A DNA stretch of 64,000 nt from Heterodontus francisci (taxonomy: Eukaryota), in assembly GCF_036365525.1 (NCBI RefSeq), contig NC_090372.1, positions 91,935,754 to 91,999,753 of the forward strand, written 5' to 3'. A model generated the notes under the pieces. The model was not told where the DNA came from. It saw only the letters and a list, made by a program, of their open reading frames with translations, and ran no database searches. A program made the translations under genes and the position numbers. This document shows positions 1 to 61,818 of this stretch, one piece after another; the first letter of the stretch is position 1, and each line of letters opens with the position of its first letter.

Positions 1-288
1 GCCTACTTTTAACGGGCTGCTTTTCTCGGGCCTGGGCCACCTGCTTGTCAACGGTAAACTCCACATGGCAGTGAGTGGAGGCCCTTAAGTGGCCGTTAAC
101 TGGCCTCTTAACAGCCTTAATTGGGCTGGGACGGACGGGCAGTTTACCGCTGCTGCCGTGCCATGTAAAATGGTGGCGGAGGCAGGAGTGGGTCGGGAAG
201 GGCCCCCCTGAGCCTCCCACTCCATTTTACACCGCCCGCCCTCCACCAGCCACCAGCCCACTCTTTGGGGGTGCGTAAAATTCCTGCC
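1..288. mobile_element. Right part of a non-autonomous PIF/Harbinger-type element (MITE)
   Basis: Ends in TAAAATTCCTGCC (276-288), a variant of the TAAAATTCAGCCC terminus of other MITEs here; shares the internal GGCCCTTAAGTGGCC/TTAATTGG motif with 20761-21449 and 31957-32690. Confidence 0.55.
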
Positions 289-692
289 ATCCTAATAGTA
301 GAAGTTCAATCAAGCAGTGGAAACAGGATAGCAACAGACGCTTCAGTTCTGTATGATATTGATCAGGCAGTTTGTAAAATAATTATTACAGATCTATCTG
401 GTGATTGAGTTAATTAACACAGCGACACTTCAGTTCTTGTGGTTGCAGGCTGACAAAGAAGACCTGGTTAAACAGTGTTATACAAAATATTGAGTATTAT
501 GTCTAAAGTAGTATGAAGATTTGTTTACCAGCATAGTTGTTAATGGGTCAACATTAGTCAAATGGTGACTGGTGCCATTTGTGATGTGTTTTACCAGCTG
601 GCAGCATTGACGATGTATGTTGAAAATTAATAATCGGTGTAGTTGGGCCCTGAGTCAATGGGCTAAATTTTCCTCTAACTGCCAGAAACATA

Positions 693-1378
693 GGTCTGAA
701 TTTTATGAGCCCTCTGGCGTCGGGGGCCATTGGGGGAAGTGGGGAGGGGGGCCGGGAAAATTATTCCAGGAGAGGCCTGCCACAACCTCCAATGCCAAGA
801 AGGCCCCACCGTATTTTACTGGCAGTGCGAGGCCTCGGTGTGACCCCCTGCCACAACCACTCAGCTTAATATGCAGATGAGATTACAATGAAAGAATAAT
901 TACCTACCTGGTAGCGATGGCCGTCCCACGCCGATAGTTTGGCCACCGGCCCGGACTCCCACGCCTTCGGAACTCCATGACACTAGTGGGGAGGGGGGAG
1001 CGAAGTTCAAATTTCAGGGTGAGATGGGGGGATAGGGGAGAACTCTTGTAATTGGTTGGAGGGATGGTGGGAAGGGGTTGAGGGTCAAAGGTGCTGAAGG
1101 TGGGGGGTGAAAGGTCAACTTAATTAAAAAGTGTTTTTCAGAGGGGCTAGGTCATTTTAAAAACGAGGCCGGCACCTGCACGATGGTGCCGTACGCCATT
1201 GCTGGGAATGGAGCAGCCGTCTCCTCTATATCACCGGGGCGGCCACTCCACCCCCTCCATTTAAATGAGCTCCAGGGTGAAATATCACGGGGGCTCAGCG
1301 ACAGCCCCTCTGCGCCTGAAGACCACCGACTTCAAAGCCCACCACTGCTGTTTGCAGCGCACTAATAAAATTCAGCCC
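693..1378. mobile_element. Harbinger-type MITE
   Basis: 14-bp TIR GGTCTGAATTTTAT (693-706) / ATAAAATTCAGCCC (1365-1378), 1 mismatch; same terminus as the transposase-bearing element at 55415-57673; no clean TSD. Confidence 0.7.
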
Positions 1379-1639
1379 AATGGTGGGTGACAATGCTGGA
1401 ACAACAATGCATTTTTCCAGGACACAGCTTTATTTGATATGCAGGTTGGATTTTAACCTGAATTCCTACCTGCACCAAATTTCCAGGTTAGCATTCGTTC
1501 CTTGTCATTTCCACTCTGTGCTCCCACTCTGCATGGTCGCAAAACCTGTCGGCTTTTATACCTCTCTTGAAACTAACTTAAAGGGAACAGATGTCTCTGT
1601 TGAAGGGGCATCAGTAATAAACAGTAACAAGAAAAACTA

Positions 1640-2294
1640 TTGAAAAAACTTAAGTAAATCAAACTACAAATTAAAATGCCATTGCTGGTGGTGATAATGC
1701 ACTCCAGTCCCACCAGTGTCGGAGAGCTCAAGCATTCTAGCAGACACCACATGCTCCCTCTCCAGGTACGGACATAGGCCCGGATGAGAAGCAGACAGTC
1801 TGGCCGGATGACCCCCTCGACTGCTCACAGCCTTGATGTTGATGGTCACCTTGGCCAGGCCCAGGAGCAGTCCCATGAGGAGGTCCCTCGACCGCCTGCT
1901 CCCCTCCGCTTTGGGTGACCAAAAATCAGGAGCATGGGACTAAATTGCAACCAGAACCAGAGGAGCAGCCCCCTCAGATATTAGAACAAGGGCTGCAACC
2001 TCATACTTTCCAAATAAATGTGAAACACGGAATCCTCCAGGCCACAGACATTACAGACAGCCTGGGAGTTTGTGAATTGACTTAATAATCTTTTGCACAG
2101 GACAGCCGTATGCAAAACCCTCCATGTCAAATCCTGGATTTACAAAGGAGGACTCCTTCATGGAGTGCCTCCCACTGGGGGCCTCGCCTCCTCTGGACAG
2201 GAGGTACAGAATGTCATAGCGTGCCGGATGGCCGGCGAGGGCGAGGAGGTGGAGGGTGTACAACAGCAGTCCATACAGGAAACCCCTCCATGAG
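1640..2294 (-). mobile_element. Tx1 (L1-clade) LINE, ORF2 3' end, degraded
   Basis: Minus-strand frames give RGFLYGLLLYTLHLLAL, DLTWRVLHTAVLCKRLLSQFTNSQAVCNVCGLEDSVFHIY (zf-RVT-like CxxC..H), FWLQFSPMLLIFGHP, GLLLGLAKVTIN, LEREHVVS: a typical Tx1 ORF2 C-terminus. Confidence 0.8.
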
Positions 2295-2295
2295 G

Positions 2296-2386
2296 TAGGC
2301 GGTGGCGTAGTGGTATTATCACTGGACTAGTAACCCAGAGACCCAGGGTATTCCTCTGGGGACATGGATTCGAATCCCACCACCGC
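2296..2386 (+). promoter_or_regulatory. tRNA-Thr(AGT)-like head with internal Pol III A and B boxes
   Basis: A box TGGCGTAGTGG (2303-2313); anticodon-like loop CTAGTAA within CTGG..CCAG; extra hairpin CCCAGAG/CTCTGGG (2334-2360); B box GGATTCGAATCCC (2366-2378, 1 mismatch to GGTTCGAATCC); GCGGTGG (2299-2305) complementary to CCACCGC (2380-2386). Confidence 0.8.
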
Positions 2387-2614
2387 AGAAGGTGGAATTT
2401 GAACTTAATAAAAATCTGGAATTAAAACTGGTCTAATGATGGCCATGAAACCATTTTCGATTGTTGTAAAAACCCATCTGGTTCACTAACGTCCTTTAGG
2501 GAAGGAAATCTGCTGTCCTTACCTGGTCTGGCCTACATGTGACTCCAGACCCACAGCAATGTGGTTAACTCTTACATGCCCTCTGAAATGGCTTAGCAAG
2601 CCACTCAGTTGTAA

Positions 2615-5516
2615 CTAACCGCTACAAAGTCTATAAAAAGGAATGAAACCAGACGGACCACCCGGCATCGACCTAGGCACCGGAAACGACAATGGCAAAC
2701 CCAGCCCTGTCGACCCTGCAAAGTCCTCCTTACTAATATCTGGGGGCTTGTGCCAAAGTTGGGAGAGCTGTCCCACAGACTAGTCAAGCAACAGCCTGAC
2801 ATAGTCGGACTCACGGAATCATACCTAACAGACAATGTCCCAGATACTGCCATCACCATCCCCGGGTACGTCCTGTCCCACCGGCAGGACAGACCCAGCA
2901 GAGGTGGTGGCACAGTGGTAAACAGTAGGGAGGGAGTTGCCCTGGGAGTCCTCAACATCGACTCCGAACCTCATGAAGTCTCATGGCATCAGGTCAAATA
3001 TGGGCAAGGTAACCTCCGACTGATTACCACCTACCGCCCTCCCTCAGCTGATGACTCAGTACTCCTCCATGTTGAACAGCACTTGGAGGAAGCACTGAGG
3101 GTGGCAAGGGCACAAAATGTACTCTGGGTGGGGGACTTCAATGTCCATCACCATGAGTGGCTCGGTAGCACCACTACTGACTGAGCTGGCCGAGTCCTAA
3201 AGGACATGGCTGCTAGACTGGGTCTGCGGCAGGTGGTGGGGGAACCAACACGAGGGAACAACATACTCGACCTCGTCCTCACCAATCTGCCTGCCGCAGA
3301 TGCATCTGTCCATGACAGTATTGGTAGGAGTGACCACCGCACAGTCCTTGTGGAGATGAAGTCCCGCCTTCACATTGCGGATACCATCCGTCGTGTTGTG
3401 TGGCACTATCACCGTGCTGAATGGGATAGATTTCGAACGGATCTAGCAATGCAAAACTGGGCATCCATGAGGCGCTGTGGGCCATCAGCAGCAGCAGAAT
3501 TGTACTCAACCACAATCTGTAACCTCATGGCCCGGCATATCCCCCACTCTACCATTACCATCAAGCCAGGAGACCAACCCTGGTTCAATGAAGAGTGCAG
3601 GAGGGCATGCCAGGAGCAGCACCAGGCATACCTCAAAATGAGGTGTCAACCTGGTGAAGCTACAACCCAGGACTACTTGCATGCCAAACTGCATAAGCAG
3701 CATGCTATAGACAGAGCTAAGCGATCCCATAACCAACGGATCAGATCTAAGCTCTGCAGTCCTGCCACATCCAGCCATGAATGGTGGTGGACAATTAAAC
3801 AACTAACTGGAGGAGGTGGCTCCACAAATATCCCCATCCTCAATGATGGGGGAGCCCAGCACATCAGTGCAAAAGATAAGGCTGAAGCATTTGCAACAAT
3901 CTTCAGCCAGAAGTGCCGAGTTGATGATCCATCTCGGCCTCCTCCTGAAGTCCCCAGCATCACAGATGCCAAACTTCAGCCAATTCGATTCACTCCATGT
4001 GATATCAAGAAACGACTGAAGGCTCTGGATACTGCAAAAGCTATGGGGCCTGACAACATTCCGGCAATAGTACTGAAGACCTGTGCTCCAGAACTTGCTG
4101 CGCCCATAGCCAAGCTGTTCCAGTACAGCTACAACACTGGCATCTACCCGGCAATGTGGAAAATTGCCCAGGTATGTCCTGTACACAAAAAGCAGGACAA
4201 ATCGAACCCGGCCAACTACTGCCCCATTAGCCTACTCTCAATTATCAGTAAAGTGATGGAAGGTGTCATCAACAGTGCCATCAAGCGGCACTTGCTTAGC
4301 AACAACCTGCTCAGTGATGCTCAGTTTGGGTCCGCCAGGGCCACTCAGTTCCTGACCTCATTACAGCCTTGGTTCAAACATGGACAAAAGAGCTGAACTC
4401 AAGAGGTGAGGTGAGAGTGACTGCCCTTGACATCAAGGCAGCATTTGACCGAATATGGCATCAAGGAGCCCTAGCAAAACTGAGGTCAATGGGAATCAGG
4501 GGGGAAACCCTCCACTGGCTAGAGTCATACCTGGCGCAAAGGAAGATGGTTGTGGTTGTTGGAGGTCAATCATCTGAGCTCCAGGACATCGCTGCAGGAG
4601 TTCCTCAGGGTAGAGTCCTAGGCCCAACCATCTTCAGCTGCTTCATCAATGACCTTCCTTCAATCATAAGGTCAGAAGCCGGGATGTTCGCTGATGATTG
4701 CACAATGTTCAGCACCATTCGTGACTCCTCAGATACTGAAGCAGTCTGTGTAGAAATGCAGCAAGACCTGGACAATATCCAGGCTTGGGCTGATAAGTGG
4801 CAAGTAACATTCGCGCCACACAAGTGCCAGGCAATGACCATCTCCAACAAGAGAGAATCTAACCATCTCCCCTTGACATTCAACGGCATTACCATCGCTG
4901 AATCCCCCACTATCAACATCCTAGGGGCTACCATTGACCAGAAACTGAACTAGAGTAGTCATATAAATACCGTGGCTACAACAGCAGGTCAGAGGCTAGG
5001 AATCCTGAGGCGTGTAACTCACCTCCTGACTCCCCAAAGCCTGTCCACAATCTACAAGGCACAAGTCAGGAGTGTGATGGAATACTCTCCACTTTGATGG
5101 GTGCAGCTCCAACAACACTCAAGAAGCTCGACACCATCCAGGACAAAGCAGCCCACTTGATTGGCACCCCATCTATAAACATTCACTCCCTCCACCACCG
5201 ACGTACAGTGGCAGCAGTGTGTACCATCCACAAGATGCACCGCAGTAATGCACCAAGGCTCCTTAGACAGCACCTTCCAAACCCGCGACCTCTACCAACT
5301 AGAAGGACAAGGGCAGCAAGTACATGGGAACACCACCACCTGCAAGTTCCCCTCCAAGTCACACACCATCCTGACTTGGAACTATATCGCCGTTCCTTCA
5401 CTGTCGCTGGGTCAAAATCCTGGAACTCCCTTCCTAACAGCACTGTGGGCTTACCTACCCCACATGGACAACGGTTCAAGAAGGCAGCTCCCCACCACCT
5501 TCTCAAGGGCAATTAG
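2615..5516 (+). pseudogene. LINE endonuclease-reverse transcriptase ORF, few disruptions
   Basis: APE motifs VLLTNIWGL, DIVGLTESYL, TTYRPPS, VGDFNVHH, ILDLVLTN, SDHRTV; RT motifs ALDIKAAFDRIWH, GVPQGRVLGP, FADD. Disruptions: TGA at 3182, frameshift near 4331, TAG at 4951, small deletion near 5093. Confidence 0.9.
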
Positions 5517-5579
5517 GGATTGGCAATAAATGCTGGCCTGGCCAGCGACGCCCACATCCCGTGAATTAATTTAAAAAAA

Positions 5580-5632
5580 GAGTGGAATGGCACAGAGGGG
5601 ATTTCCAAGAGAAGGCTCAGGTGGCCCTGTCT
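5580..5632 (-). mobile_element. Continuation of the Tx1 fragment beyond the LINE insertion
   Basis: Minus strand HLSLLLEIPSVPFHS joins in frame to WRGFLYGLLL left of 2294. Confidence 0.7.
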
Positions 5633-6029
5633 TCTTTTACAGAGGCTGGTGACTCATACCCAAGTTGTAACTGCTAAGTCAGCTTCCTGCTACAGTAATT
5701 AACATCTATTCAGGCAACCACTTTCAATTGAGTAACAGATACCAGCCACTGCCAGGCAGTTTCTGTTAAACTAAGCTTTTTACAAGCTTGCAGTTTTAAA
5801 GTTCTAAGTCAGAGTCTGACTGCTAATCTAAATTATAGCTTGAGAAAAACTTACCAGAGATATCCCACCTGCACCAAATTCCCAAGTTAGCACTCATTCC
5901 CCATTGCACTCAGTCCTTGTTGTCTCCACTCTGAATGGCCTACTCCTACTCCTATTTCCTATGTTCCTATGTTCTCACTTTGAAGCACCAAGGTCTCAAA
6001 CGGCAGAAGGAGGAGCAGTATCTTGGTCA

Positions 6030-8287: not shown

Positions 8288-10365
8288 ATGTCTGCAACTG
8301 AAGCGAGTAGCTCTCCAAGCCGGGGTGAAGTAACTTGGGATAAGTTAAAAGCACTGTCTATGAAGGATTTGAGGAAAATGGCTGAGCAGTGAGGGATCAT
8401 TATACGTGGCAAGGCTAGGAAGTCTGAAATATTAAGGCAAGTGGCCAACAACTTTCCCCTTGAATCTGAAGAAACCAAAACGGGGTTAGAAGCAGAATCT
8501 GACAGGGTATTGCTAGCAAAGATACAATTGAAACAGAGGAAACCTGAATTTGAGGAAAGAGAGAGGGACAAAGAGAGAGGCTTCCAGAAGGTACGTGAAG
8601 AAAAAGAAAGACAGGACAAGGAATGAGAGAGAGAGGAGAGAGAGAAAGAATATTCCAGAAAGAATCCAGAGAGAGAGAGCTGAAATGGCTTGAGTTAACT
8701 AGGAGGTGACAAAGTAAGCCCAGTGAAAGCATGGCCATTTTGGAGGAGCATAACTCAGGGCTGGGTACAAAATTGCTAAAAATCGCTCAATTAATTCCAA
8801 AATTCAATGAGGAAGATGTGGAAGCGTTTTTTGTGTTTTTTGAGAAATTGGCAAGGCCACTAAAATGGCCAGCTGAGACCTGGTCTCTTTTAATACAAAG
8901 CAAACTAACTGGAACAGCCCATGAGGTTTATTCCTTGTTTCCAGACGAGAGTTCATCAAATTATGAACTGACCAAAAATGCTATCCTCGGGGCATATGAA
9001 TTAGTACCCGAAGCCTACTGCCTCAAAAAGCAAGCTAATCAAACTTATCTGGAGTTTTAAAGAAGCAAGCAGTTGGTTTTTGACCAGTGGCTGAGGGCTC
9101 ATAGAATACAGCTCAGCTATGAGACTCTCAGAGAAGTAATGCTGTTAGAGGAATTTAAAGGCAGTCCTGGGATAGAAAGGAAAGCAGGAGACACAGGGGG
9201 CCCTCCTCCAGCCAAAAAGGAAGATGCTATGAGCAAGAGTGATTCCTGGAGACCTGTGTGCCTCCATCGTAATAAAGCAGGGCATTTAAAAGCTGGCTGC
9301 TGGAAACTAAAGGGAAAACCGGTGGGGTTAATCTGGACACACCCGCTCAGTGAAGACACAGAACAAGGTGCGGCCTTAACTGCAGTAAGAGTGAGACCCA
9401 GAAAGCTTATTACAGCCAGTGCAGGAAAAGTTAATAGGATTCCTGAAGGTTATCAGGGTTTTTTGTCTGAAGGGAAAGTAACCCCATACCCCTCAAGTGG
9501 TGCAAGCAAGCCCATAGTGATTCTCAGGGACACAGGGGCCACCAGATCCCTTTTACTGGGAACGGTCTGACCTTTCCCACAAAGAGTGCAGTAAACACCA
9601 GAATGATAGTGAATGGTATTGGAGGGCAGTGTATGCCTGTACCAGTACACTGTGTGTATCTGGAGTGCGACCTAGTTTCTGGATTGGTGACCATAGGGAT
9701 TGTCCCTAGTTTGCCTGTGGACGGGTTGACCTGCTCCTAGGTAATGATCTGGCAGGGGTGAAGGTGGTAACCCCCCCCCCAGTAGTGAAAGAAAGACCAC
9801 AGGAGATCAGAGAGACAGGGCGGTGGCAGAAGACGGACCCCTGCACTTTCCATTAATGTGTAGTGGATCAGGCCATCAAACTAGCTCCCCCAGAGGAGAC
9901 TGCATTGGCATTGCAGGCAAATGACCATGAGGTCTACCTGCCTGAGACTTTCTTCGGAAAGTTAGGAGACCCAGGGAATGAATCAAATGGATTTTCCCTA
10001 GCTGAAGCTCAGCGAGCTGACCCAGTATTGTGAGAGTTAGCACAGGCTGCCCAGTCTGACAGTGAAGCAGAGGGAGTCCCTGGTTGCTACTATTTAAAGA
10101 AGGAGGTACTGATGAGGAAATGGAGTTCTCCACACAGCCCTGAGAGCAAGAAGTGGACATTAGTTCACCAGTTAGTGGTGCCACAGAGGTACTGGACAGA
10201 AATATTAAGAAGTGCCCATGAGACTACAGTGGCTGTACATGTCAGTATAGAAAGGACCAAAGCCCACATAAGACAGCGGTTTGATTGACCAAAGCTCCAC
10301 AAAGATGTGGTGGAGTACTGCAGGAGTTGCCACGTGTGCCTGGTTGAGGGAAACCCCAACCTACA
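8288..10365 (+). pseudogene. Gag (SCAN-like capsid, CCHC knuckle), protease and integrase HHCC domain, disrupted
   Basis: LIPKFNEEDVEAFFVFFEKLA..KWPAETWSLLIQSKLTG..NYELTKNAILGAYELVPEAY; CLHRNKAGHLKAGC; ILRDTGATRSLL; then HETTVAVH...VVEYCRSCHVC near 10215-10340, i.e. integrase directly after protease. Confidence 0.85.
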
Positions 10366-11111
10366 GTGAAACCTGCACCCCTAAGTCCTGTGTTAGGAGG
10401 ACCCTCCAACAGAGGGCTGGTGAATTATAAGGGTTACCCGCTGAGAACAAAAGGGGACAGGCAGGCACAAGGCTGGCAAAAGTTTAGAAAGAGAAGGGGA
10501 AAAAGTGATCAAGAGGGCAGGTTAAAGGAAGTCCAGGAGGAAGCCTGGATGAAAACCCCTACTGTCTGGTCAGCCAACTTCGAACAATGTGAACCATTAG
10601 ACCGCACATCCTCCTACTTTAATGCAGACACTAGAAGCACCCCACCAGAGTTGCTAACAGCATTTACAGGAACCTGCAGAGACAAAGAGAGATCTCTAGG
10701 AGGCACAGAAACCATGAGGGTGATGTCTCACTTAGACAAAGTGCCACAGGAGAGTGCTGCCAAGTCTGCACAAATACCTACACGCAGGGATGTCCCAGAG
10801 AGCAAAGGAGAGATGAAATGGAATCCTCCCCCACAGTCAGAGAAAAAGGGAACCACCCATCCCCTGAAGTCAAAAGCCTTTGCATCTCAAAGACCCTAAG
10901 CAGTCATGGAAATGGGCAAACTGAAGAAAAACTTTCTCAAAGAAACACAGGTTTATTGGGATGCCAAAAATGGGGAAATTAAAGCTGCACTGGCACCCAG
11001 AAAAGACAATTTTAGTAAGTTCCAAGATTGATGAATGAATGGAAATGAATGAGAGAAATGCATGTTTTTTCTTTCTGTATCCTATATTTCTCTCAAACCT
11101 TGTAATGAAAT

Positions 11112-12846: not shown

Positions 12847-15500
12847 TCATGCTCTGAAATTATTGAACTCAATGTTCAGTTGAACAAGCTGTAGTGTCCC
12901 TAATCAGTAAATGGGATGCTGTTCCTCGAGCTTGCGTTGATGTTTACTGGAAAACTGCAGCAATCCCAGGACAGAGATATGAGCATGAGAGCAGGGGGGG
13001 GGGTGTGTTGAAATGGCAAGCAACTGGAAGCTCAGGGTCCTGCTTGCGGACTGAGTGGAGGTGTTCTGCAAAGCGGTCACCCAGTCTGCTTTTGGTATCC
13101 CCAATCTAGAGGAGACCACATTGTGAGCAGCGAATACACTATACTACATTGAAAGAAGTACAAGTAAATCGCTGCTTCACCTGAAAGGAGTGTTTGGGGC
13201 CTTGGATAGTGAGGAGAGAGGAGGTAAATGGGCAGGTATTACACCTCCTGCGATTGCAGGGGAAGGTGCTGTGGGAAGGGGACGAGGTGGTGGGGGTAAT
13301 GGAGGAGTGGACCAGGGTGTCGCGGAGGGAACGATCCCTTCGGAATGCTGACAGGGGAAGGGAGGGGAAGATGTGTTTGGTAGTGGCATCATGCTGGAGC
13401 TGGCGGAAATGGCGGAGGATGATCCTTTGGATATGGAGGCTGATGGGGTGGAAAGTGAGGACAAGGGGAACCCTGTCACGGTTCTGGGAGGGAGGGGAAG
13501 GGGTGAGGGTAGAGGTGCGGGAAATGGGCCGGACACGGTTGAGGGCCCTGTCAACCACAGTGGGGGGGAATCCTTGGTTGAGGAAAAAGGAAGACATATC
13601 AGAAGTGCTGTCATGGAAGGTAGCATCATCAGAGCAGATGCGTTGGAGATGGAGAAACTGGGAGAATGGAATGGAGTCCTTACAGGAGGCAGGGTGTGAA
13701 GAAGTGTAGTTGAGGTAGCTGTGGGAGTTGGTGGGCTTATAATGGATATTAGTAGACAGCCTATGCCCAGAGATGGAGACAGAGAAGTCGAGGAAGGGAA
13801 GGGAAGTGTCGGAGATGGACCATGTAAAGGTGAGAGAAGGGTGGAAATTAGAAGCAAAGTTGATAAAGTTTTCCAGTTTGGAGTGGGAGCAGGAAACGGC
13901 ACCGATACAGTCATCAATTTACGGAAAAAGAGTTGGGGGAGGGGGCCTGAGTAGGCCTGGAACAAGGAATGTTTGACATATCCCACAAAAAGACAGGCAT
14001 AACTAGGACCCATGCGGGTACCCATCGCAACACGTTTTACTTGAAGGAAGTGAGTGGAGTTGAAGGAGAAGTTGTTCAATGTGAGAACTTCAGCCAGGCG
14101 GAGGAGGGTGGTGGTGGATGGGGACTGGTTGGGCCTCTGTTCAAGGAAGAAGCGGAAAGCCCTCAAACCATCCTGGTGGGGGATGGAGGTGTAGAGAGAT
14201 TGAACGTCCAAAGTGAAGAGGAGGCGGTTGGGGCCAGGAAACTAGAAATTGTCAAAATGACTTAGGGCGTCAGAAGAGTCACAGATGTAGGTGGGAAGAG
14301 ACTGGACCAGCGGAGAAAAGATGGAATCAAGATAGGAAAAAATAAGTTCAGTGGGGCAGGAGTAGGCTGACACAATGGGTCTGCTGGAACAGTCCTGTTT
14401 GTGGATTTTGGGAAGGAGGTAGAAGCGGGCTGTCCGGGATTGCAGGACTATGAGGTTGGAAGCTGTAGAGGGAAGATCTCCAGAGGAGATGAGGTCAGTG
14501 ACAGTCCTGTGGACAGTAGCTTGATGTTCGGTGGTGGGGTCATGGTCCAGGGAGAGGTAGGAAGAAGTGTCTGAGAGTTGGCACTGAGCCTCTGCAAGGT
14601 AGAAGTCGGTACGTCATACAACAGCATCACCCTTGTCTGCAGGTGTGATAACAATGTCAGGGTTAGACCTGAGAGAACGGAGTGCCTCAAGTTCAGGTTA
14701 GAGTGAGTGAGGGGGGCAGAGAAATTTAGATGACCAACGTCTCGCCGACAGTTTTCAATGAAAAGATCAAGAGCGGGTAAGAGGTCAGGGGAGGGGTCCA
14801 GGTAGAGGGGGAATACTGGAGGCGGATGAATGGGTCTGCAGATCGGGGGGAGGACTCCTGGTCAAAGAAGTGAGCCCGGAGGCGGAGGCGACGGAAGAAG
14901 AGCTCAACGTCATGCCGAGCGCGAAATTCATTGAGGTGGGGGCGGAAGGGGATAAAACTGAGTCCTTTGCTGAGTACAGAATGTTCAGCATCAGAGAGGG
15001 GGAGGTCAGAGGGTATAGTGAATATACGGCAAGGGGTCAGATCAGAAGGGGTGGAGTCAGAGGGCAGTGAAGGGGAAGAAGGATCTGGAGGGGCAGTAGT
15101 CCCCATCAGCTGCTGGAGCTTGTGTTCCTTGAAAGGAAGAGAAAACGTTTTTTGTTAATGCATCGGATGAGACGAAGGATGAAATGAAACTGCGGAGTAG
15201 AACAGCTTTGAGATAAGGTGAGGCGGTGCTTCTGGAGAGAGAGGTTCAGTGTGTACATCTAGTGGTGCATAGCACTGAGTGTGGATCTCAGGATGCGGCG
15301 AGAACAGCAGTCCGAGGAACGTTGTATTTCTCGGAGATACTTGTAACCCTGGGTGGATTCAAAACATGGTGGGTGAAACAGCAGTTGGAATCCACGTGGA
15401 ATAAGTCGGAGCCAGAGACAGTCACTGAGGAAGGAGATGTGGCTGTGAAAATGGGTTTTGGTAGACACTTTATCAAACACTAGGAGGAAAATAGAAAGCA
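12847..15500 (-). pseudogene. Penelope RT-GIY-YIG ORF, 5'-truncated and frameshifted
   Basis: VLSKGLSFIP, DVQSLYTSIPH, QVKRVAMGTRMGPSYACLFVG, frameshifted YIDD region near 13910-13925, RVPLVLTFHP, CNRRRCNTC, FTCTSFNVV..CIRCSQC (GIY-YIG); stop TGA at 12847-12849. Confidence 0.85.
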
Positions 15501-21449: not shown

Positions 21450-21925
21450 AATGTGGGGAAGTGTTAAGTATTCACTTGGAAGGAGAAACAAAAAAGCAGA
21501 ACATTTTGTAAATTGTGAGAGACTGGGAAATGTTGATATTCAGAGAGACCTGGGTGTCCTTTTACACAAAACACAGAAAGTTAGCATGCAAATACAGCAA
21601 GGAAAGAGGAAAGCAAATGGTATGTTAACCTTTATTACAAAGCAATTGGAGTATAAGAGTGAAAGAGTTTTATTCCATTTGTATAGGGCCTTGGTGAGAC
21701 CACACCTGGAGTAGTTTTGGTCAACTTACCTATAGAAGATATACAAAGGTTCAATAGAGTGATTCCTGGGATAAGAGAATTGTCCTATGAGGAGAGATTG
21801 AGCAGGCTAGGCCTATATTCCCTCGAGTTTAAAATGATGAGAGGTGATCTCAACAAAGAACAGTACAGCACAGGAACAGGCCATTCGGCCCTCCAAGCCT
21901 GCGCCAATCATGATGCCTATCTAAA

Positions 21926-24864
21926 CTAAAACCTTCTGCACTTCCGGGGTCCGTATCCCTCTATTCCCATCCTATTCATGTATTTGTCAAGATGCCTCTT
22001 AAACATCGCTATCGTAGCTGCTTCCACCACCTCCCCCGGCAGCAAGTTCCAGGCACTCACCACCCTCTGTGTAAAAAACTTGCCTCTCACATCTCCTCTA
22101 AACATTGCCCCTCGCACCTTAAACCTATGTCCCCTAGTAACTGACTCTTCCACCCAGGGAAAAAGCTTCTGACTATCCACTCTGTCCATGCCACTCATAA
22201 CTTTGTAAACTTCTATCAGGTCACCCCTCCACCTCTGTCGTTCCAGTGAAAACAATCCGAGTTTATACAACCTCTCCTCATAGCTAATACCTCCAGACCA
22301 AGCAACATCCTGGTAAACCTCTTCTGTACCCTCTCCAAAGCCTCCACATCCTTCTGGTGGTGTGGCGACCAGAATTGTACACAATATTCCAAGTGTGGCC
22401 TAACTAAGGTTCTGTACAGCTGCAGTATGACTTGCCTATTTTTATACTCTATGCCCTGACCAATGAAGGCAAGCATGCCGTATGCCTTCTTGACTACCTT
22501 ATCCACCTGCATTGCCACTTTCAGTGATCTGTGGACCTGTATGCCTAGATCTCTCTGCCTGTCGATACTCCTAAGGGTTCTGCCATTTACTGGATACTTC
22601 CCACCTGTATTAGACCTTCCAAAATGCATTACCTCACATTTGTCCGGATTAAACTCCATCTGCCATTTCTCCACCCAAGTCTCCAACCGATCTATATCCT
22701 GCTGTATCCTTTGACAATCCTTGTCACTATCTGCAACTCCACCAACCTTTGTGTCATCCGCAAACTTACTAATCAGACCAGCTACATTTTCCTTCAAATC
22801 ATTTATATATACTACAAACAGCAAAGGTCCCAGCACTGTTCCCTGCGGACCACCACTAGTCATAGCCCTCCATTCAGAAAAGCACCCTTCCACTGCTACC
22901 CTCTGTCTTCTATGACCGAGCCAGTTCTGTATCCACCTTGCCAGCTCCCCTCTGATCCCGTGTGACTTCACCTTTTGTACCAGTCTGCCATGAGGGAACT
23001 TATCAAAGGCTTTACTGAAGTCCATGTAGACAACATCCACTGCCCTTCCTTCATCAATCATCTTCGTCACTTCCTCAAAAAACTTGATTAAGTTAGTGAG
23101 ACACGACTTCCCCTTCACAAAACCATGCTGCCTCTCGCTAATAAGTCCATTTGTTTCTAAATGGGAGTAAATCCTATCCCAAGGAACCCTCTCCAATAAT
23201 TTCCCTACCACTGATGTAAGGCTCACCGGCCTGTAATTTCCTGGATTATCCTTGCTATCCTTCTTAAACAAAGGAACAACATTGGCTATTCTCCAGTCCT
23301 CTGGGACCTCACCTGTAGCCAATGAGGATACAAAGATTTCTGTCAAGGCCGCAGCAATTTCCTCCCTTGCCTCCTTCAGTATTCTGGGGTAGATCCCATC
23401 AGGCCCTGGGGACTTATCTACCTTAATGTTTTTCAAGACGCCCAACAGCTCCTCCTTTTTGATAATGACATGACCCAGACTATCTACACTCCCTTCCCTA
23501 GACTCATCATCCACCAAGTCCTTCTCTTTGGTGACTACTGATGCAAAGTACTCATTTACTACCTCACCCATTTCCTCTGGCTCCATGCATAGATTCCCTC
23601 CTCTGTCCTTGAGTGGCCCAACCCTTTCCCTGGCTACCCTCGTGCTCTTTATATACGTATAAAAAGCCTTGGGATTCTCCTTAATCTTGTTTGCCAATGA
23701 CTTTTCATGACCCCTTTTAGCCCTCCTGACTCCTTGCTTAAGTTCCTTCCAACTTTCTTTATATTCCTCAAGGGCTTTGGCTGTTCCCAGCCTTCTAGCC
23801 CTTATGTATGCTTCCTTTTTCTTTTTGTCGAGGCTCACAATATCCCACGTTATCCAAGGTTCCCGAAACTTGCCAAACTTATCCTTCTTCCTCACAGGAA
23901 CATGCCGGTCCTGGATTCTAACCATCTGATGTTTGAAAGACTCCCACATGTCAGATGTTGATTTACCCTCAAACAGCCGCCCCCAATCTAAATTCTTCTG
24001 TTCCTGCCTCATATTGTTATAATTAGCCTTCCCCCAATTTAGCACCTTCACCCGAGGACTACTCTTATCCTTATCCACAAGTACCTTAAAACTTACGGAA
24101 TTATGGTCACTGTTCCCGAAATGCTCCCCTACTGAAACTTCGACCACCTGGCCGGGCTCATTCCCCAATACCAGGTCCAGTACGGCCCCATCCCTAATTG
24201 GATTATCTACATATTGTTTCAAGAAGGCTTCCTGGATGCTCCTTACAAATTCTGCCCCATCTAAGCCCCTAGCACTAAGTGAGTCCCAGTCAATATAGGG
24301 GAAGTTAAAATCACCCACCACAACAACCTTGTTGCTTTTACGTCTTTCCAAAATCTGTCTACATATCTGCTCCTCTATCTCCCGCTGGCTGTTGGGAGGC
24401 CTGTAGTAAGCCCCCAACATCATGACTGCACCCTTCCTATTCCTGAGCTCCACCCATATTGCCTCGCTGCATGATCCCTCTGAGGTGTCCTCCCGCAGTA
24501 CAGCTGTGATATTCTCCGTAACTAGTAATGCAACACCCCCACCCCTTTTACATCCCCCTCTATCCCGCCTGAAGCATCTAAATCCCAGAACGTTTAGCTG
24601 CCAATCCTGTCCTTCCCTCAACCAAGTCTTGTTAATAGCAACAACATCATAGTTCCAAGTACTAATCCAAGCTCTAAGTTCATCTGCCTTACCTGTTATA
24701 CTTCTCGCATTGAAACAAATGCACTTCAGACCACCAGTCCCGATGTGCTCAGCAACATCTCCCTGCCTGCTCTTCCTCTCAGTCTTACTGGCCTTATTCA
24801 CTAGTTCCCCCTCAGTTATATCACTTGCTGACCTACTGCTCTGGTTCCCACCCCCCTGCCACAC
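21926..24864 (-). pseudogene. CR1 ORF2 (APE + RT), one frameshift near 22290
   Basis: CFNARSI, YYRPPNS, VVGDFNFP, LDLVLGN, SDHNSV, YMDFSKAFDK, PQGTVLGP, FADDTK; C-terminus continues in ORF 21926-22384 (RGDLIEVYK, WNLLP). Confidence 0.92.
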
Positions 24865-25788
24865 TAGTTTAAATCCTCCCGAGTGACGCTAGCAAACCTC
24901 GCAGCCAGGATATTAGTGCCCCTCCAGTTTAGATGCAACCCGTCCTTCTTGTACAGGTCCCACCTGTCCCAGAAGAGATCCCAATGATCCAGATATCTGA
25001 AACCCTCCCTCCTACACCAGCTGTTTAGCCATGTGTTTAGCTGCACTATCTTCCTATTTCTAGCCTCACTGGCACGTGGCACAGGGAGTAATCCCGAGAT
25101 TACAACCCTAGAGGTCCTGTTTTTTTAACTTACTACCCTAACTCCTTGAACTTCCCCTGCAGGACCTCGTCACTCTTCCTGCCTATGTCTTTAGTACCAA
25201 TGTGTACCACAACCTCTGGCTGTTCACCCTCCCCCTTCAGAATGCCCCCTGTCTGTTCAGAGACATCTTTGACACTGGCACCAGGGAGGCAACATACCAT
25301 CCTGGAGTCTCTTTCACGTCCACAGAAGCGCCTATCTGTGCCCCTGACTATAGAGTTCCCTATAACTATTGCTCTTCTGCGTTTGTCCCTCCCTGCTGAA
25401 CAACACAGCCAGCCGTGGTGCCACTGCTCTGGCTGCTGCTGTTTTCCCCTGATAGGTCATCCCCCCCAACAGTATCTATAACGGTATACTTGTTAGAGAG
25501 GGGGATAGCCACAGGGGATTCCTGCACTGACTGCCTGTCCCTTTTAGTGGTCACCCATCTATCTGCCTGTACCTTGGGTGTAACCACGTCTCTAAAACTC
25601 CTGTCTATGATGCTTTCTGCCACCTGCATGCTCCTCAGTGCATCCAATTGCTGCTCCAACCGATCCATGCGGTCTGTGAGGAGCTGCAACTGGGTACACT
25701 TCCTGCACATGTAGTTGTCTGGAACGTTGGAAGCGTCACGGACCTCCCACATCTCACAGGTGAAGCACGTTACCCCTCTGACTGACAT
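24864..25788 (-). pseudogene. CR1 ORF1 (CxxC..CxxC, leucine zipper, SGNH/GDSL esterase), frameshifted
   Basis: MSVRGVTCFTCEMW..YMCRKCTQLQLLTDRMDRLEQQL; IVIGNSIVRG; VVVHIGTKDIG; DGLHLNWRG; stop TAG overlaps the ORF2 GTG (TAGTG). Confidence 0.85.
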
Positions 25789-27071
25789 TCCTAGCACTAA
25801 TTAATAAATTAATTGGAAATAAATACTTATTAAATCCCTACTAAATTAAGTTACAATTAACTATATGGTCCCGAGCTCTAGATTTCTGCTATAAATATTA
25901 AATGCTAAATACAGTAATCTCCTCCCTCCGGTTTAGTTACTGCTCTACTTATTAATTAATTAGTTAATTAGGGTTAATTAGTTTATCAATGTTTTATTTT
26001 CAAATTCAGTGCAGATTCCCTACCAGCCAATCAGGTCACAGCTTTCCTGTGACGTCATTTTTTTCAGTTTTTTTCCACCCGAGGTAAGTTCCTCACTGCT
26101 CCGGTACTCCGCCCTCTGAGTCTTCTCCCAACCAATCACCTTGCAGCTCCCCTCTGACATCACTGTTGGCTTTTTATTTTCAAAACTCCGGTGCGCTGGA
26201 AGAGCTCCACTCGCTCCCGGGAGGTAAGAGACTGGGCCTCGATCCTCGGGGTCGATTTATCGGCTCCGCTCTCGGCGTTCTCCCCACAGGTCCGCTCCGT
26301 TCCTCTCCGCTCCGCTCCCGGAAGGTTATTTCATATAAAATTTTTAAGGGGCTTGATAGGGTAGATGCTGGGAGGTTGTTTTCCCTGGTTGGGCTGTCTA
26401 GAACAAGGTGGATATTTAGGACTGAGATGAGGAGAAATTCCTTCACACAAAAAGCTGTGGGTCTTTGGAAAGTTCTACCCCAGGGAGCAGTCAGTGCTCA
26501 ATCATTGACTGCATTCAAGACAGAAATTGATAAAATTTTGGATACTAAGGGAAATTAAGGCATACAAGGATAGTGCAGGAAGGTGGAGTTGAGGTAGAAG
26601 ATCAGCTATGATTGTATTGAATGGTGGAATAGGCTGATGGGCTGAAAGGCCTATTCCTGCTCCTATTTTTTTATGTCCTTATGTTCTTAAAATGAAACAG
26701 GTTGAATGACAGCAAGCTGTGGGAGTATTGAGTTTATCACTGAAACATCAGCATGGAACTTTGTTGCAATCACTGGAAGTGTGGCAGGATAGAATTCCCA
26801 TCACTGATGGCAGTGTGTTGGAACAGAACTATCATCCACCCAATTGTCACAGTGCTGACCCTGCTCATGTTTCTGGGGTCAAGCTAAAATAACTATGTTG
26901 GCTATGTGCTGAAAATGCCTGTAACAGTGGGTCTAGTCTGGAGGATGGGAAATGAGGTGCTGCTGTAAGATTTCAATGTCTGTAGTGGCTTAAGGGACCA
27001 GGCATCAACAAAAAAAGATTTGGTTTGGAAGCAGCATTACAAATTTATCTCTGAGAGGCCACACTCTGAGA

Positions 27072-47545: not shown

Positions 47546-48956
47546 AGCAAAATACTGCGGATGCTGGAGCTCTGAAATGAGAACAGAAAGTGCCGGAAAT
47601 ACTCAGCCGGTCTGGCAGCATCTGTGTAGAGAGAAACAGAATTAACATTTCAGGTCTGTGACCCTTCATCAGAACTGGCAAAAGTTAGAAATGTAACAGT
47701 CTTTGAGCAACTGAAAGGGGGAGGGGGGGGAAAGAACAAGAAGGAAGGACTGCGATAGGACAGAGGGGAGAGAGATTAAATGACAGATGTCATGGAACAG
47801 AATACAAATGGCGTGCTAAATAGAGTGCTAATGGCAGAATAATGAACAGCTCTGTATGAAAGCAAAAACATGAAAAATAAGTTTAAGACCAGCAAATGGT
47901 TAAAAAAAATTAAATATATATAAACAAAAAATAATGGGGCTCATGGTCGACTGAAATTATTGAACTCAATATTGAGACCCGAAGGTTGTAGACTGCCTAA
48001 TTGGAAGATGAGGTGCTGTTCCTCTAGCTTACACTGATGTGGAATATTGCAGCAGACCGAGGACAGAAATGTGGGCATTTGAACAAGGTGCTGAATTAAA
48101 ACGGCAAGCAACCAGAAGCTCGAGATCATGCTTGCAGACTGAGCGAAGGTGTTCTACAAAGTGGTCACCCAATCTGCGTTTGGTCTCCCCAATGTAGAGA
48201 AGACCGCATTGTGAGCAGTGGATACAGTATACTAAGTTGAAAGAAGTAAAAGTAAATCACTGCTTCATCTGGAAGGAGTGTTTGGGGCCTTGGATGGTGA
48301 GAAGAGAGGAGGTAAAAGGGCAGATATTACACCTCCTGTGATTGCATGGGAAGGTGCTGTGGGAAAGGCTTGAGGTGTCAGGGGTGGCAGAGTGGACCAG
48401 GGTGTCGCAGAGGGAACGGTCCCTTCGGAATGCTGGCGGGAGGGGAGGGGAAGATGTATTTGGTGGTGGCATCACACTGGAGGTGGCGGAAATGGCAGAG
48501 GATGATCCTTTGGATGTGGAGGCTGGTGGGGTGGAAAGTAAGGACAAGGGGAACCCTGTCGCGGTTCTGGGAGGGAGGGGAAGGGTTGAGGGCAGAAGTG
48601 CGGGAAATGGGTCGGACACGGTCGAGGGTCCCGTCAACCTGTGTGGGAAAATCCTCGGTTGAGGAAAAAGGACATAACAGATGCACTGTTCTGGAAGGTT
48701 GCATCACCAGAACAGATGCGTCGGAGATGGAGAAACTGGGAGAATGGATTGGAGTTCTTACAGGCGGCAGGCTGTGAGGAGTGTAGTCAAGGTAGCTGTG
48801 GGAGTTGGTGGGCTTATAATAAATACGAGTGAACAGACTATCCCCAGATATGGAGGCAGAGAAGTCGAGGAGGGAAGGGAGGTGTCAGAGAGGAACTGTA
48901 GGAAGATGAGAGAAGGGTGGAAATTGGAAGCAAAGTTGATGACATTTTCCAGTTCC
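47546..48956 (-). mobile_element. Penelope-like 3' part in the last STK31 intron
   Basis: RVPLVLTFHP, CNHRRCNIC, GLNIEFNNF; 3' repeat with hammerhead motif at 47640-47676 (GAAAT variant). Confidence 0.87.
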
Positions 48957-54530: not shown

Positions 54531-54773
54531 TGGAATAGGTACTTAACTCTTCACAAAAGATTTATTTCTTTGCTCCGTTAAGTGAAGTTTATACGTTTTT
54601 CAATCTATAGCAACACACAACAATTCCTTACTGCTGAAATTTATATTAACTTGTTTATAGTGACAAATGGAAGTCAAATTGGTCAGAAATTGAACTTGTT
54701 GCCACAACAAAAATCCAAAATTGGCCATTTCTGAATTGACTCCAGGAAAACAAGTTTCACCAGATGTAGTTCT

Positions 54774-54975
54774 TTTTAATTCATTCACGAGATATGGGCA
54801 CCACTGGCAATGTCAGCATTTATTGTCGGTCCCTAATTGCCCTTCGAAGGTGGTGGTGAGCTGAACCGCTCCAGTCTATGTGGTGTAAGTACACCCAAAG
54901 TGTTGTTAGGGAGGGATATCCAGGATTTTGATCTAGCGACAGTGAAGCTGTGGCAATATATTTCCAAGTTGAGAG
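54774..54975 (-). mobile_element. 3' end of the same LINE family as 2295-5579
   Basis: Reverse complement of ~5375-5575 (AAGGGCAATTAGGGA..AATAAATGCTG..GCCCATATC). Confidence 0.8.
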
Positions 54976-57162: not shown

Positions 57163-60066
57163 AATCTGAGAGCCGTGCCCCCATTGTCAGCTGCAGCTTT
57201 CCTTCTGGGCAGGTGGCTCCCCAACTGTCCTTGGCAGCCTTGCCCCCTGCTCTTATGCACCTGTGATGCCAGGGCAGGGAGCGCCGACCCTTGTTCAATG
57301 CCCGTGTCCTGAGTGCCCACTCTCCCAGCCATCTGCACAACGCCAAGGTCACCCCGTTACTAACAGCTGAATCCCCCTTTGCCCTGTTGACCCATTTATG
57401 TGGCCAGGGAGTTGCTGCCTCCCCTCAAATGATCTGTTTCTGAAGGCATGAGCATCCTGTGCTCCCCTTTAAAATTTCAAGTTCAAACACCAACAAGCTC
57501 TTAATGAGCTTTTCAACAGCTTTCAACAAGGAGTGGGATTCCTGTCCCAACCTGGTGATTATTGCCAGTTTCGAGATCAGGGTCTTGAAACTGACATGCT
57601 GCCTGCCGCCAGTATTTTCAGGGCCCCCCCCGGCCTCCATTCCAGACATCGGGGGGCCCTGCAAATTCAGCCCCAAGTGTCATCTTCAAGTAAAGGTTGG
57701 CTAGAGGACAGGGATAATCAGACCAGGGCCTGCAAAGATAATTCAGTCCACAATTTAAAGTCATGCATTCTCGCCTTGTTCATAAAATCATGTTATAAAT
57801 TTCTTTGTCCACATTTATACTTTAAGCAACCTAAGTAAACTGGTCACACTGTAATTATAGTGATCTACTAGTGGTGACACTGCAGGACTTCCACATGTTG
57901 TAATTAAATAACTGGTGTAATTAAGGTAAACAAGTTTGCATAGACAATTTCTATTCTAAAGGTAGAAACAGGAATCTATACTTAAAAACTTTTTGCAAGA
58001 CATGAAACGTTATTTATTATACACAAACACAATGATGTCTGTTGCATTGCTCATAATTAAGAGACTTCACTGGTTTGTAATAAATAGGGGTATTCATGTA
58101 ATTTAAGGGATGACATGAGGGCCACTGATCTATAGTAACTAAATAAATCAATCCTTTCAAAAATTAAATTGTATACTGGATTTTTACTGGTGCTTTGTGG
58201 ACTGAACTTCACAACTCTGACCATTACTTAATGAAAATCAAGTAAGTAGCCTTTGTTTTTGATCTTTTTTTTTAGCCCTGTATTTATTTTTTAAAGCAGA
58301 TAATACATATCAAGATAGTAAGCAAGATGCCCCAATTACAGCTGTATATCTGGTATTTAGCAGGGAGGAGGAAATGGAGTTCAGTTGTCCTTGGGAGTCC
58401 AGGACTTTGGTTGCACTGGAGATGCTCCTGGGATTTGGTAGAATTGGGGTGGGGGTCTTCAAGCTTAACAGTACTGCAGTAGAATCTGGAATTTTATGCC
58501 AAATCTAAGAAATTCTTGTGCTGCTAGTGTGGAGGGCAAACCTGAGATTTGACACAACGGGGAGTGGAATGTGATATTTCACTCACTGGTGGATTCCTGA
58601 GGAACAAATTTCATATGTATGGCATTGGAAACTGATTGCCTCCTGGGGGTGTGCGCTGCACTACCAGCCACTTGGGTGTCACCCATGTGACGCACCATCT
58701 TGAGAAGCAACTGAACTGGTCCTATCTTGACATCACACAGCTATAGTGGCTGATATGGCATCCATTTTCCAAATTTGGACCACACATTCAACAAATTTGT
58801 ACGTGATTCAACAAAGATCAAGTATTGAGCTTCAAAACGGGCCCAGCACTAGTGTTATTTAAAGGGCCAGGCACCCAACTTGAAGGTAAAGCAATTTTGA
58901 ATAATATTTGTTATTGCAAACTGTCTGAAAGTGCTCTGGTGTGTTTTTGGAGGTGTTTTGGTAAGTTCCTGGATTTGGCAGGGAGTGTTGCTGCATCCTC
59001 ATTGGAAAAGCAGAGGATTAGGTGACTTGTACACACAAAGGCTGTAACAGGTATGGGGCAGCAGGGCCAGTGCCTCTGGGTCTGCAGCACGACATGGAAA
59101 TGGAGCAGAGGCTGCCGAGAGAGCAAGCTTTGTGCAATGAGAGTGCTAGTGGCTGCAAGTATCAGATCAAGTGATGAGGCCTCTTCATCAGTGCAGTGCT
59201 GTTGCTTTCTCTCCTCCTGCTGGGGCTACTGTGGCTAGGCACCTGAAGACTTGTGCTCCAAAGTTAGCTGTGCCTGTGGCCAATCTGCTCAAATACAGCT
59301 ACAATGCTGGTACCTTACCTGACAATATGGAAAAACTGCACAGGTATGTTGCATCCACTAAAAGCAGGACAAATCCAATTCAGCCAAATACCACCCAATC
59401 AGCCAACTCTCAAGCGTCAGTGAAGTGATGAAAGATGCCGTCAACAGTGCTACCAAGCCGCACTTACTCACCAACATCCTGCTCACTGATGCTCAGTTTG
59501 GGTTTCACTAGGATAACTCAGCTCCAGACCTCATTATAGCCTTGGTCCAAACATAGATAAATGAGCTAAATTCCAGAGGTTAGGTAATAGTGACTGCCCT
59601 TGACATCAAGACTGAATGTGTCATCAAGGAGCACTCTCCACTGGTTATAGTCATACCTAGCACAAAAGGAAGACAGTTGTGGCTGTTGGAGGCCAATCAT
59701 CTCAATCCTAGGACATCGCTACAGGAGTTCCTCAGGGCTAGGCCCAAGCTTCTTCAGCTGCTTCATTAATGACTGTCCCTTCATTATAAGGCCAGAAGTA
59801 GGGATGTTCGCTAAAGATTGTAGAATTCAGTTCCATTCTGAATTCCTTGGATAACGAAGCAGTTCGTGCCCGAATGCAGCAAGACCCGAACAAGAGGCAA
59901 GTAGCATTCGCACTACACATTCTAGACAATGACCTTCTCCATCATGTGAGAGTCTAACCACTTCCTCTTGACATTCAACAGCATTACCATTGCCTAATTC
60001 CCTCACCATCAACATCTTGGGGATAACCGTTGACAAGAAACTCAACGGGACCAGTCACATATATAA

Positions 60067-61365
60067 CATAAAGATGAAGAGTAGGACCAAAAATTCCAAG
60101 GAACCCTGGATGTCATGGAATATGGAGGATTGGATGAGGGAAAAAAAAGGAGACTTATGGCAGATTCAAAGCACTGAAAACAGCAGAGGCCCTAGAGGAG
60201 TATAGAAACAGTAGGGAGGGTACTTAAAAAAAGTAATTAGGAGAGCGAAGAGGGGACATGAAAAAACACTGGCGGGCAAGATAAAGGAAAATCCCAAGGC
60301 GTTTTATAAGTATATTAAGGGCAAAGGATAAGCAGGGAAAGAGTAGGGCCCATTAGGGACCAAAGTGGCAATCTGTGTGTGGAGCCGGAGGACATAGGTG
60401 AGGTTTTAAATGATTACTTTTCATCTATGTTCACTATGGAGAAAGACGATGTAGGTGTAGAGATCTGGGAGGGGGACTGTGATATACTTGAACAAATTAG
60501 CACTGAAAGTGAGGAAGTATTTGCTGTTTTAGCGGGCTTAAAAGTGGATAAATCCTCAGGCCCAGATGAGATATATCCCAGGCTGTTATGTGAGGCAAGG
60601 GAGGAGATAGCAGGGGCTCGGACACAAATTTTAAAATCCTCTCTGGCCACAGGAGAGGCACCAGAGGACTGGAGGACAGCGAATGTGGTACCATTATTCA
60701 AGAAGGGTAGCAGGGGTAAACCAGGTAGTTACAGGTTAGTGAGTCTACCATCAGTGGTAGGGAAACTATTGGAAAGAATTCTGAGGGGCAGGATTAATCT
60801 CCACTTGGAAAGGCAGGGATTAATCAGGGATAGTCAGCATGGCTTTGTTCTGGTCCCCACACTATAGGAAGGATGTGTTTGCACTGGAGACGGTGCAGAG
60901 GACATTCACCAGGATGTTGCCTGGGTTGGAGCATTTCAGCTATGAAGAGAGACTGGATAGGCTAGGGTTGTTTTCCTTAGAGCAGAGAAGGCTGAGGGGG
61001 GACCTGATTGAGGTATACAAAATTATGAGGGGCATTGATAGGATAGATAGGAAGAAACATTTTTCCTTAGCAATAACCAGGGGCATAGATTTAAGGTAAG
61101 GGGCAGGAGGTTTAGAGGGGATTTGAGGAAAAGTTTTTTCACCCAGAGGGTGGTTGGAATTTGGAATGCACTATCTGAAGGGGTGGTAGAGGCAGGAACC
61201 CTCACAACATTTAAGAAGTATTTAGATGAGCACTTGAAACGCCATAACATACAAGGTTACGGGCCAAGTGCCGGAAAATGGGATTAGAATAAATAGGTGC
61301 TTGATGGCCAGCACAGCCATGATGGGCCGAAGGGCCTGTTTCTGTGCTGTATAACTCTATGACTC
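60067..61365 (+). mobile_element. CR1 with the RT core deleted near 60848
   Basis: Flanked by TATAA (60062-60066 / 61366-61370); DSQHGFV fused directly to FWSPHYRKD. Confidence 0.85.
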
Positions 61366-61818
61366 TATAATGCGGCTACAACAGCAGGTCAGAGGCTGGT
61401 TATTCTGTGACGAGTGACTCACCTCCTGACTCCCCAAATTCTTTCCACCATATAAAAGGCACAAGTCAGGACTGTGATGGAATACTATCCACTTGCCTGG
61501 ATGAGTGCAGCTCCAACATCAGAAGAACAATGCAAAGCAGTCTGCTTAATCGGCACCCCATCTACACTTTAAGCATTCACTCCCTCCAGCACTGGAGCAC
61601 AGTGGCTGCAGGGAATACCATCGATAATACACAATGCAGTAAGCCTTGTCAAGTCTTCAACAGCACCATTCAAGCCCATGGCCTCTATCACCTAGAAGGA
61701 CGAAGGCAACAAGTGCATGGGAACACCACCAACTGCAAGTTTCCCTCTAAGTCATAGATCATCCTGACTTGAAAACACATCGCCGTTCCCCCATCGCTGG
61801 GTCAAAATCCTAGAACTC

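Follow-up and report, generated by a model that had tools for sequence, protein, structure and literature searches.

T-cluster deficit on the sense strand of a tRNA-headed Zenon LINE from Heterodontus francisci and its possible link to RNA polymerase III read-through

The sense strand of a tRNA-headed LINE in the genome of Heterodontus francisci is depleted of T clusters throughout its family, and this deficit is a stronger signal than the scarcity of TTTT by which it was first noticed. The element always includes its tRNA-type head as an integral component. Its T-cluster deficit is limited to one strand and one family, extends over synonymous sites and fits the known stop motifs of RNA polymerase III (Pol III). 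We infer, with a probability of about 0.7, that the deficit arose from selection for full-length read-through by Pol III. The family itself has already been published; as far as the searched literature goes, the Pol III reading is the new part, with no earlier publication of it found in a search made mostly outside subscription journals and Repbase reports.

A Zenon element with a tRNA-type head

The window analysed here, 64,000 nt of contig NC_090372.1, holds one full-length, decayed copy of the element on the forward strand (2294–5579), delimited by alignment to the family majority and by the common 5′ start point of the copies. Its parts run in the order tRNA-type head, body of about 250 nt, single endonuclease–reverse transcriptase (RT) frame and A tail. 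A predicted A box of a type 2 Pol III promoter lies at 2303–2313, 11 nt into the majority, and a predicted B box at 2367–2377, both called by sequence match to the box consensus. In the majority the boxes occupy positions 11–21 and 75–85, a tRNA-like spacing near the 5′ end, and the B box is canonical; that of the window copy is damaged by one substitution at 2368. ARAGORN called no tRNA and Rfam no RNA family in the head, although missed tRNA calls are common for SINE heads.

The endonuclease and RT frame (2615–5516; Pfam PF03372, PF14529 and PF00078) contains no run of four T (T4). In the window copy it is broken by stops near 3182 and 4951 and by small deletions near 4331, 5094 and 5469; in the majority it is open for 975 codons, with its earliest in-frame Met at codon 204. 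ORF1 is absent from this single-frame element, the longest AUG-started frame in the 425 nt upstream of the endonuclease being 46 codons. The last upstream AUG (2643–2645) is out of frame with the RT frame and opens an overlapping frame of 46 codons in the majority.

We searched the 6-Gb genome with the body–ORF junction, scored 40 of the 5,289 candidates and took 39 other copies. After 2 duplicates and 5 rearranged or cut copies had been dropped, the 3,299-nt majority was built from 33 rows (32 copies and the window copy); the window copy is 97.6% identical to it over 3,295 columns. Because 28 of the 37 distinct junction-bearing copies start within 3 nt of one 5′ point, the head belongs to the unit that transposes. 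The copies are 85–98% alike and have nearly one common majority sequence. Twenty further copies, chosen as candidates for an older subfamily, gave a majority 98% identical to the first and so provide no independent test; all sites share the history of one lineage. Two copy pairs (L043/L051 and L052/L053; contig C28) have flanks in common, which points to segmental duplication.

The window also holds older relatives. An interrupted copy of the same family at 59243–62318 (+) survives in three pieces (59243–60065, 61374–61818 and 62170–62318; 73–78% identity to the majority), split by a CR1 fragment at 60066–61373 with an ORF at 60319–60867. A 3′ fragment at 54770–54969 (−), 81% identical to the majority, has no sense T4. 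Elsewhere, frames with zinc-knuckle-like and protease-like motifs at 9061–10899 (+) are probably the remains of an LTR retrotransposon, and 9992–11009 is a T4-free stretch of 1 kb.

By sequence comparison, the element is an elasmobranch Zenon LINE of the kind described in the main text and Supplementary Table 2 of Stuart et al. (2026, PMC13343379). Its first 400 nt match, by eye, the consensuses from elasmobranchs (CarCar, RhiTyp, ScyCan, HypSab and SquAca) in that table, and the tRNA head opens seven of seven elasmobranch Zenon consensuses, near letter for letter by eye over those 400 nt. Two hagfish consensuses and one from coelacanth are without the head and, again by eye, have T4 or longer runs within their first 400 nt. 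When five B-box words were compared with the first 400 letters of about 1,000 CR1-group consensuses, 3 rows matched, all of them elasmobranch Zenon; three of the published elasmobranch consensuses thus contain the element's own B-box word. Six of the 7 elasmobranch consensuses also show the last upstream AUG, which was not seen in SquAca_Zenon-3. The terms tRNA, promoter and polymerase III occur nowhere in the main text of PMC13343379, which accordingly discusses neither the head nor the deficit of T clusters.

A poly-A tail, given as unique to Zenon within the CR1 group (Stuart 2026, PMC13343379), is present in copies of the element. An RT tree, made without a named Zenon protein, places the element in a supported clade apart from the CR1 of the window. 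We rejected assignment to canonical CR1 (the lineage with an esterase ORF1 and a microsatellite tail), given the 27% identity to the window's CR1 protein, the separate clade and the A tail, and assignment to the short, non-coding tRNA-derived SINEs (SINE2), given a length of 3.3 kb and a frame of 975 codons.

The head and body (2294–2610) and the 3′ tail (5505–5579) align to an abundant SINE; the tail comprises AATAAA at 5525–5530, followed by an end rich in T and A and by A7. A majority built from 30 SINE loci matches positions 1–319 of the element majority at 92.9% identity and positions 3220–3297 at 94.9%. Exact matches to the SINE head-to-tail junction number 4,624 in the genome, and a few SINE copies retain extra bases from the end of the ORF, as deletion derivatives would. 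These SINEs are likely internal-deletion derivatives of the Zenon element, or the donor of its head. We take them to be putatively SacSINE1/Deu-like, a label matched by description.

T clusters on the sense strand

The initial annotation had described a coding sequence purged of TTTT, and the counts bear out its observations. After a sole TTTT at 2454–2457, the forward strand is without T4 or longer runs over 2458–5634, the longest T4-free stretch on either strand of the window (3,181 nt; the runner-up has 1,579). We counted 14 runs of four or more A (A4) in 2298–5572, in line with the estimate of about 14, and 14 sense T4 or longer runs in the CR1 at 21852–26322, which had been offered as a comparison with many such runs. 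The four homologous pieces of the older copies, 1,617 nt in total, contain zero sense T4; the interval 59238–62318 taken as a whole has 9 T4 runs, every one outside those pieces. The suspicion that the TTTT at 2454–2457 is a copy-specific mutation was correct: its third position is G in 26 of 33 rows and T only in the window copy, and the majority has no TTTT in the 5′ UTR. In all 3,299 nt, the majority has 0 T4, 6 T3 and 16 A4 runs. Among 24 full-length copies, 16 are T4-free up to the tail; of the others, 7 carry a single T4 there and 1 carries two.

The T4 count is a weak statistic on its own. Zero T4 in the window ORF compares with 3.7 expected from base shuffles (P = 0.017) and with 1.2 from dinucleotide shuffles (P = 0.27), and zero in the majority ORF with 2.1 from synonymous-codon shuffles (P = 0.087). 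Thus, the claimed T4 depletion stands against base shuffles and loses significance once dinucleotides or codon usage are held fixed. With T at 20% and A at 28%, A4 runs are at expectation (14 versus 15.0), and the contrast between T4 and A4 is therefore partly an effect of composition.

Smaller T clusters give a much clearer result. In 5,000 shuffles of the majority ORF that held protein and codon usage fixed, none had as few T3 (4 versus 12.6 expected), as few junctions of a T-ending with a T-starting codon (T|T; 4 versus 24.4; observed/expected (o/e) 0.17) or as few 4-nt windows holding three T (25 versus 59). The four T3 of the ORF are its four TTT Phe codons, and TTA is used in none of 90 Leu codons. 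Within the ORF, the autocorrelation of T with T rises from 0.65 at distance 1 to 0.74 at distance 2 and lies at 0.9–1.1 beyond. The avoidance also extends to isolated TT across codons, which is found at 4 of 66 sites where no T3 would form.

The deficit fits known signals for Pol III termination. In addition to T4 we counted the interrupted tracts T3VT2, T2VT3, T3VT, TVT3 and T2VT2, since interrupted T tracts partly stop human Pol III, isolated T3 barely does so and the T2GT2 variant is almost inactive (Orioli 2011, PMC3141230). The sense strand of the ORF has 1 such motif versus 6.4 expected (P = 0.003) and the antisense strand 30 versus 28.7, confining the deficit to the sense strand. The only motifs left in the 3,299-nt majority are two T2GT2, one in the ORF and one in the UTR. 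The initial proposal, that the coding sequence was selected to be readable by Pol III, therefore gains from T3, codon-junction T|T and interrupted motifs what T4 alone does not give it, and selection is the inferred cause.

In the same lineage, CpG at synonymous sites has fallen to an o/e of 0.20. These sites therefore do change over time, yet T|T has not filled in (0 of 40, 0 of 40 and 4 of 42 junctions by ORF third). Across the 33 rows, at non-CpG sites, changes to T before T after insertion are as frequent as elsewhere (0.0080 versus 0.0069), and loss of T is 0.0140 versus 0.0137. The normal rate of mutation to T before T indicates that the deficit arose in the transposing lineage rather than by decay in the host, and we rejected host mutation bias as its cause. 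We also rejected avoidance of splice acceptors, given that pyrimidine tracts are not depleted (35 versus 26 expected), and avoidance of the element's own endonuclease, given normal sense A-runs (antisense T-runs).

Two other families of the same genome, represented by 11 copies each, lack the deficit. The CR1 majority has 12 T4 versus 13.0 expected and a junction o/e of 0.88; the majority of a family that we take to be Penelope-like, by our own reading of its protein, has 5 versus 7.3 and 0.86. RT fragments of the latter, a young, abundant family with copies 95–96% alike, lie in the window at 13139–14241 (−) and 48378–48884 (−).

Outside controls comprised the loci with an RT-bearing frame of at least 250 codons, 70 of 80 from metagenomes and 77 of 80 from genome_contigs (147 of 160; the other 13 were left out). 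Junction o/e is 0.53–1.29 in the metagenome controls and 0.51–1.35 in the genome_contigs controls, against 0.17 in the Zenon element. Terminator motifs reach at least 2.8 per kb in 147 of 147 control ORFs and 0.36 per kb in the element, the lowest of 148 by about eightfold. No metagenome control ORF of at least 700 codons is free of T4 (0 of 42); two short control ORFs (372 and 401 codons) are. Among the controls measured, no head-less LINE has an equally strong deficit. A scan for A and B boxes was passed by 1 of 96 control loci with at least 300 nt upstream, BLAST of the head against the 147 control loci gave no match and a scan of 50 viral_contigs stretches confirmed no relative. Many prokaryote genome bins contain animal-type LINE contigs (L220–L299), most likely as host contamination.

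The closest comparison is with the seven relatives with DNA in the element's RT clade (support 0.996). Six are T-rich (30–36%), with 5–28 T4 and a junction o/e of 0.79–1.13. The seventh, L221 (stretch 1–3099, 5′ end missing), is the only in-clade control matched in composition (T 20%) and is TT-poor in part, with 1 T4 versus 3.8 expected (P = 0.06) and 13 T|T junctions versus 25.5 (o/e 0.51, P = 0.0005). However, L221 is normal in its numbers of T3 and of terminator motifs, possesses an in-frame AUG and contains T5 and T6 runs in its 3′ UTR. The nearest proteins, P0002 and P0003, are 47% identical to the element in the RT and similarly poor in Phe (1.7% and 1.6%, versus 1.9% in the element and a control median of 4.6%); compared as proteins only, they may represent a second T-poor Zenon lineage. 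In another, head-less relative (L070), a motif of about 35 nt, seen by eye, occurs twice at 370–480 in a long 5′ region and is possibly a structured RNA.

Read-through, rival explanations and translation

We propose that TFIIIC would bind the two boxes and that Pol III would initiate about 10 nt upstream of the A box, read to the tail and stop at T-runs, either within the tail or in the DNA downstream. If a source copy acquired a T4 or an interrupted T-tract, its transcription would then end early and it would leave no full-length offspring, as only full-length RNA would carry both the promoter and the 3′ end bound by the RT. Weak stop sites would add up over 3.3 kb, and purifying selection on the transposing lineage would clear T clusters. 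In the tail itself (5555–5579 in the window copy) the pattern is GAA-T(n)-A(n) and follows AATAAA by about 40 nt; in LINE copies n is 1, 2, 4, 5 or 9, and T-runs of n ≥ 4 occur in 8 of 25 parsed LINE copies (of 37) and 3 of 12 parsed SINE copies. Subfamily structure gives these no support as an inherited terminator: they are scattered over subfamilies and may reflect decay after insertion. Assembled RNA contigs from 4 of 24 runs cover 30 of 30 bins of the element; they carry neither strand nor start nor end, may be DNA or intronic copies and were not taken as transcript support.

That isolated TT is avoided too is the main loose end of the Pol III reading, as isolated TT does not stop human Pol III and its avoidance lies outside the known rules for terminators. 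Also counting against it are the weak T4 statistic under codon control, the partial TT poverty of L221, the T-richness of the other six in-clade controls, the single lineage behind the majority and the damaged B box of the window copy. Moreover, Pol III is regarded as having poor processivity, and SINEs measure 100–700 bp (Kojima 2024).

The avoidance of isolated TT speaks for a rival reading, in which Pol II transcribes the element like other LINEs, the SINE head was captured or is a relic, and T avoidance has another source, for example a context bias of its own RT or surveillance of U-rich Zenon RNA. We consider this unlikely. Also in its favour, L221 shows partial TT poverty even with T-runs in its 3′ UTR, and P0002 and P0003 are as Phe-poor as the element (as proteins only), yet the deficit is missing in six of the seven in-clade relatives and in both same-genome families. 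LINEs are described as Pol II products (Kojima 2024) and AATAAA sits about 40 nt before the tail; against this reading, the boxes are retained across the shark and ray consensuses of PMC13343379, and there is no in-frame AUG, unlike in L221 and P0001. Unbiased host mutation, undepleted pyrimidine tracts and normal sense A-runs also count against it.

It is considerably less probable that Pol III shaped only an ancestor or only part of the RNA pool, with recent copies arising mainly by Pol II read-through and inheriting a T-poor sequence. The high likeness of the copies and their near-single majority leave room for little change in the ORF, so the pattern could persist passively, and splicing from a host Pol II transcript could provide the missing in-frame AUG; the starts of 28 of 37 copies within 3 nt of the head start nevertheless argue for initiation at the head, and T|T has remained nearly empty in every ORF third while synonymous CpG decayed. 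Chance combined with a T-poor, A-rich composition, for which the T4 count of the single copy under dinucleotide shuffles (P = 0.27) and the two short T4-free control ORFs might speak, is already largely refuted and very improbable, with T|T and T3 below all 5,000 codon-preserving shuffles, none of 42 long metagenome ORFs free of T4 and the element lowest of 148 in motif density.

The least certain step of the Pol III reading, and its second loose end, is translation: on an uncapped RNA, it would have to begin at a non-AUG codon that lies upstream of a leader rich in Arg. Pol III RNAs are without an m7G cap and as a rule untranslated (Kroutter 2009, PMC2666806). We propose a non-AUG start because the majority has no in-frame AUG ahead of the endonuclease; L221 and P0001 have one. 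The AUG-less, Arg-rich leader, a stretch of 75 nt ahead of the endonuclease, has 8 CpG, of which 7 fall within Arg codons of the RT frame. Read in the frame of the upstream AUG, these CpG would lie at synonymous junctions, with 7 of 8 retained, whereas elsewhere in the ORF the figure is 18 of 112. Such retention speaks for an RT frame translated from a non-AUG start, as would suit an uncapped RNA, although constraint at the level of DNA or RNA could also explain it. In folding predictions, the head, body, leader and tail were no more structured than shuffles (z −1.2 to +0.7), so a structured IRES is unsupported here.

Extending the Pol III reading, elasmobranch Zenon may be an autonomous coding retrotransposon in which one uncapped Pol III transcript serves as both template and mRNA, with a non-AUG start aided by the conserved upstream body, and may have given rise, through internal deletions, to the shark tRNA/Deu SINEs; we give this composite proposal even odds. 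LINEs are, in the textbook division, coding elements transcribed by Pol II, and SINEs short, non-coding elements transcribed by Pol III. If our reading is true, a 3.3-kb coding LINE with a tRNA promoter breaks this split, a Pol III RNA is naturally translated and a role is suggested for the conserved SINE body. Codon choice throughout the coding sequence would then be a natural case of shaping by Pol III termination. The element would also be a direct test system, in which one added TTTT should abolish both full-length RNA and mobilization.

Comparison with known elements

The element resembles the elasmobranch Zenon consensuses in PMC13343379 in its length class (2.9–3.3 kb), the absence of ORF1, the single APE–RT frame and the poly-A tail. 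Head-less Zenon, from hagfish, coelacanth and Lepidoptera and in the invertebrate-type contigs L070 and L220, is likewise ORF1-less with a poly-A tail, and the contigs fall in the same RT clade (0.996); in the sequences compared no tRNA head was seen and T-runs are plentiful. Lepidoptera Zenon also yields internal-deletion derivatives, Persaeus, which are described as being without a Pol III promoter (PMC6740152).

Tail and head each have parallels elsewhere. RTE-1_DAn and elements related to it are autonomous LINEs containing tRNA-like sequence, but belong to the RTE clade and not to Zenon (Kojima 2018, PMC5786205). The T+ SINEs B2, Dip and Ves have the same 3′ order of AATAAA, T-run and A tail, but are mammalian, short and non-coding (Vassetzky 2021, PMC8466645), and the tail T-runs of the Zenon element differ in being scattered across subfamilies. 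A further likeness is to the SacSINE1/Deu tRNA SINEs of cartilaginous fish: SacSINE1 of sharks has a tRNA head, a Deu domain and a LINE tail (Luchetti 2017, PMC5499810). The SINE of this genome has the same plan of tRNA head, conserved body and LINE-type tail, and consists of the element's first 319 and last 78 nt at 93–95% identity. Whereas those SINEs are short and non-coding, the Zenon element has a 2.9-kb coding frame between the same head and tail.
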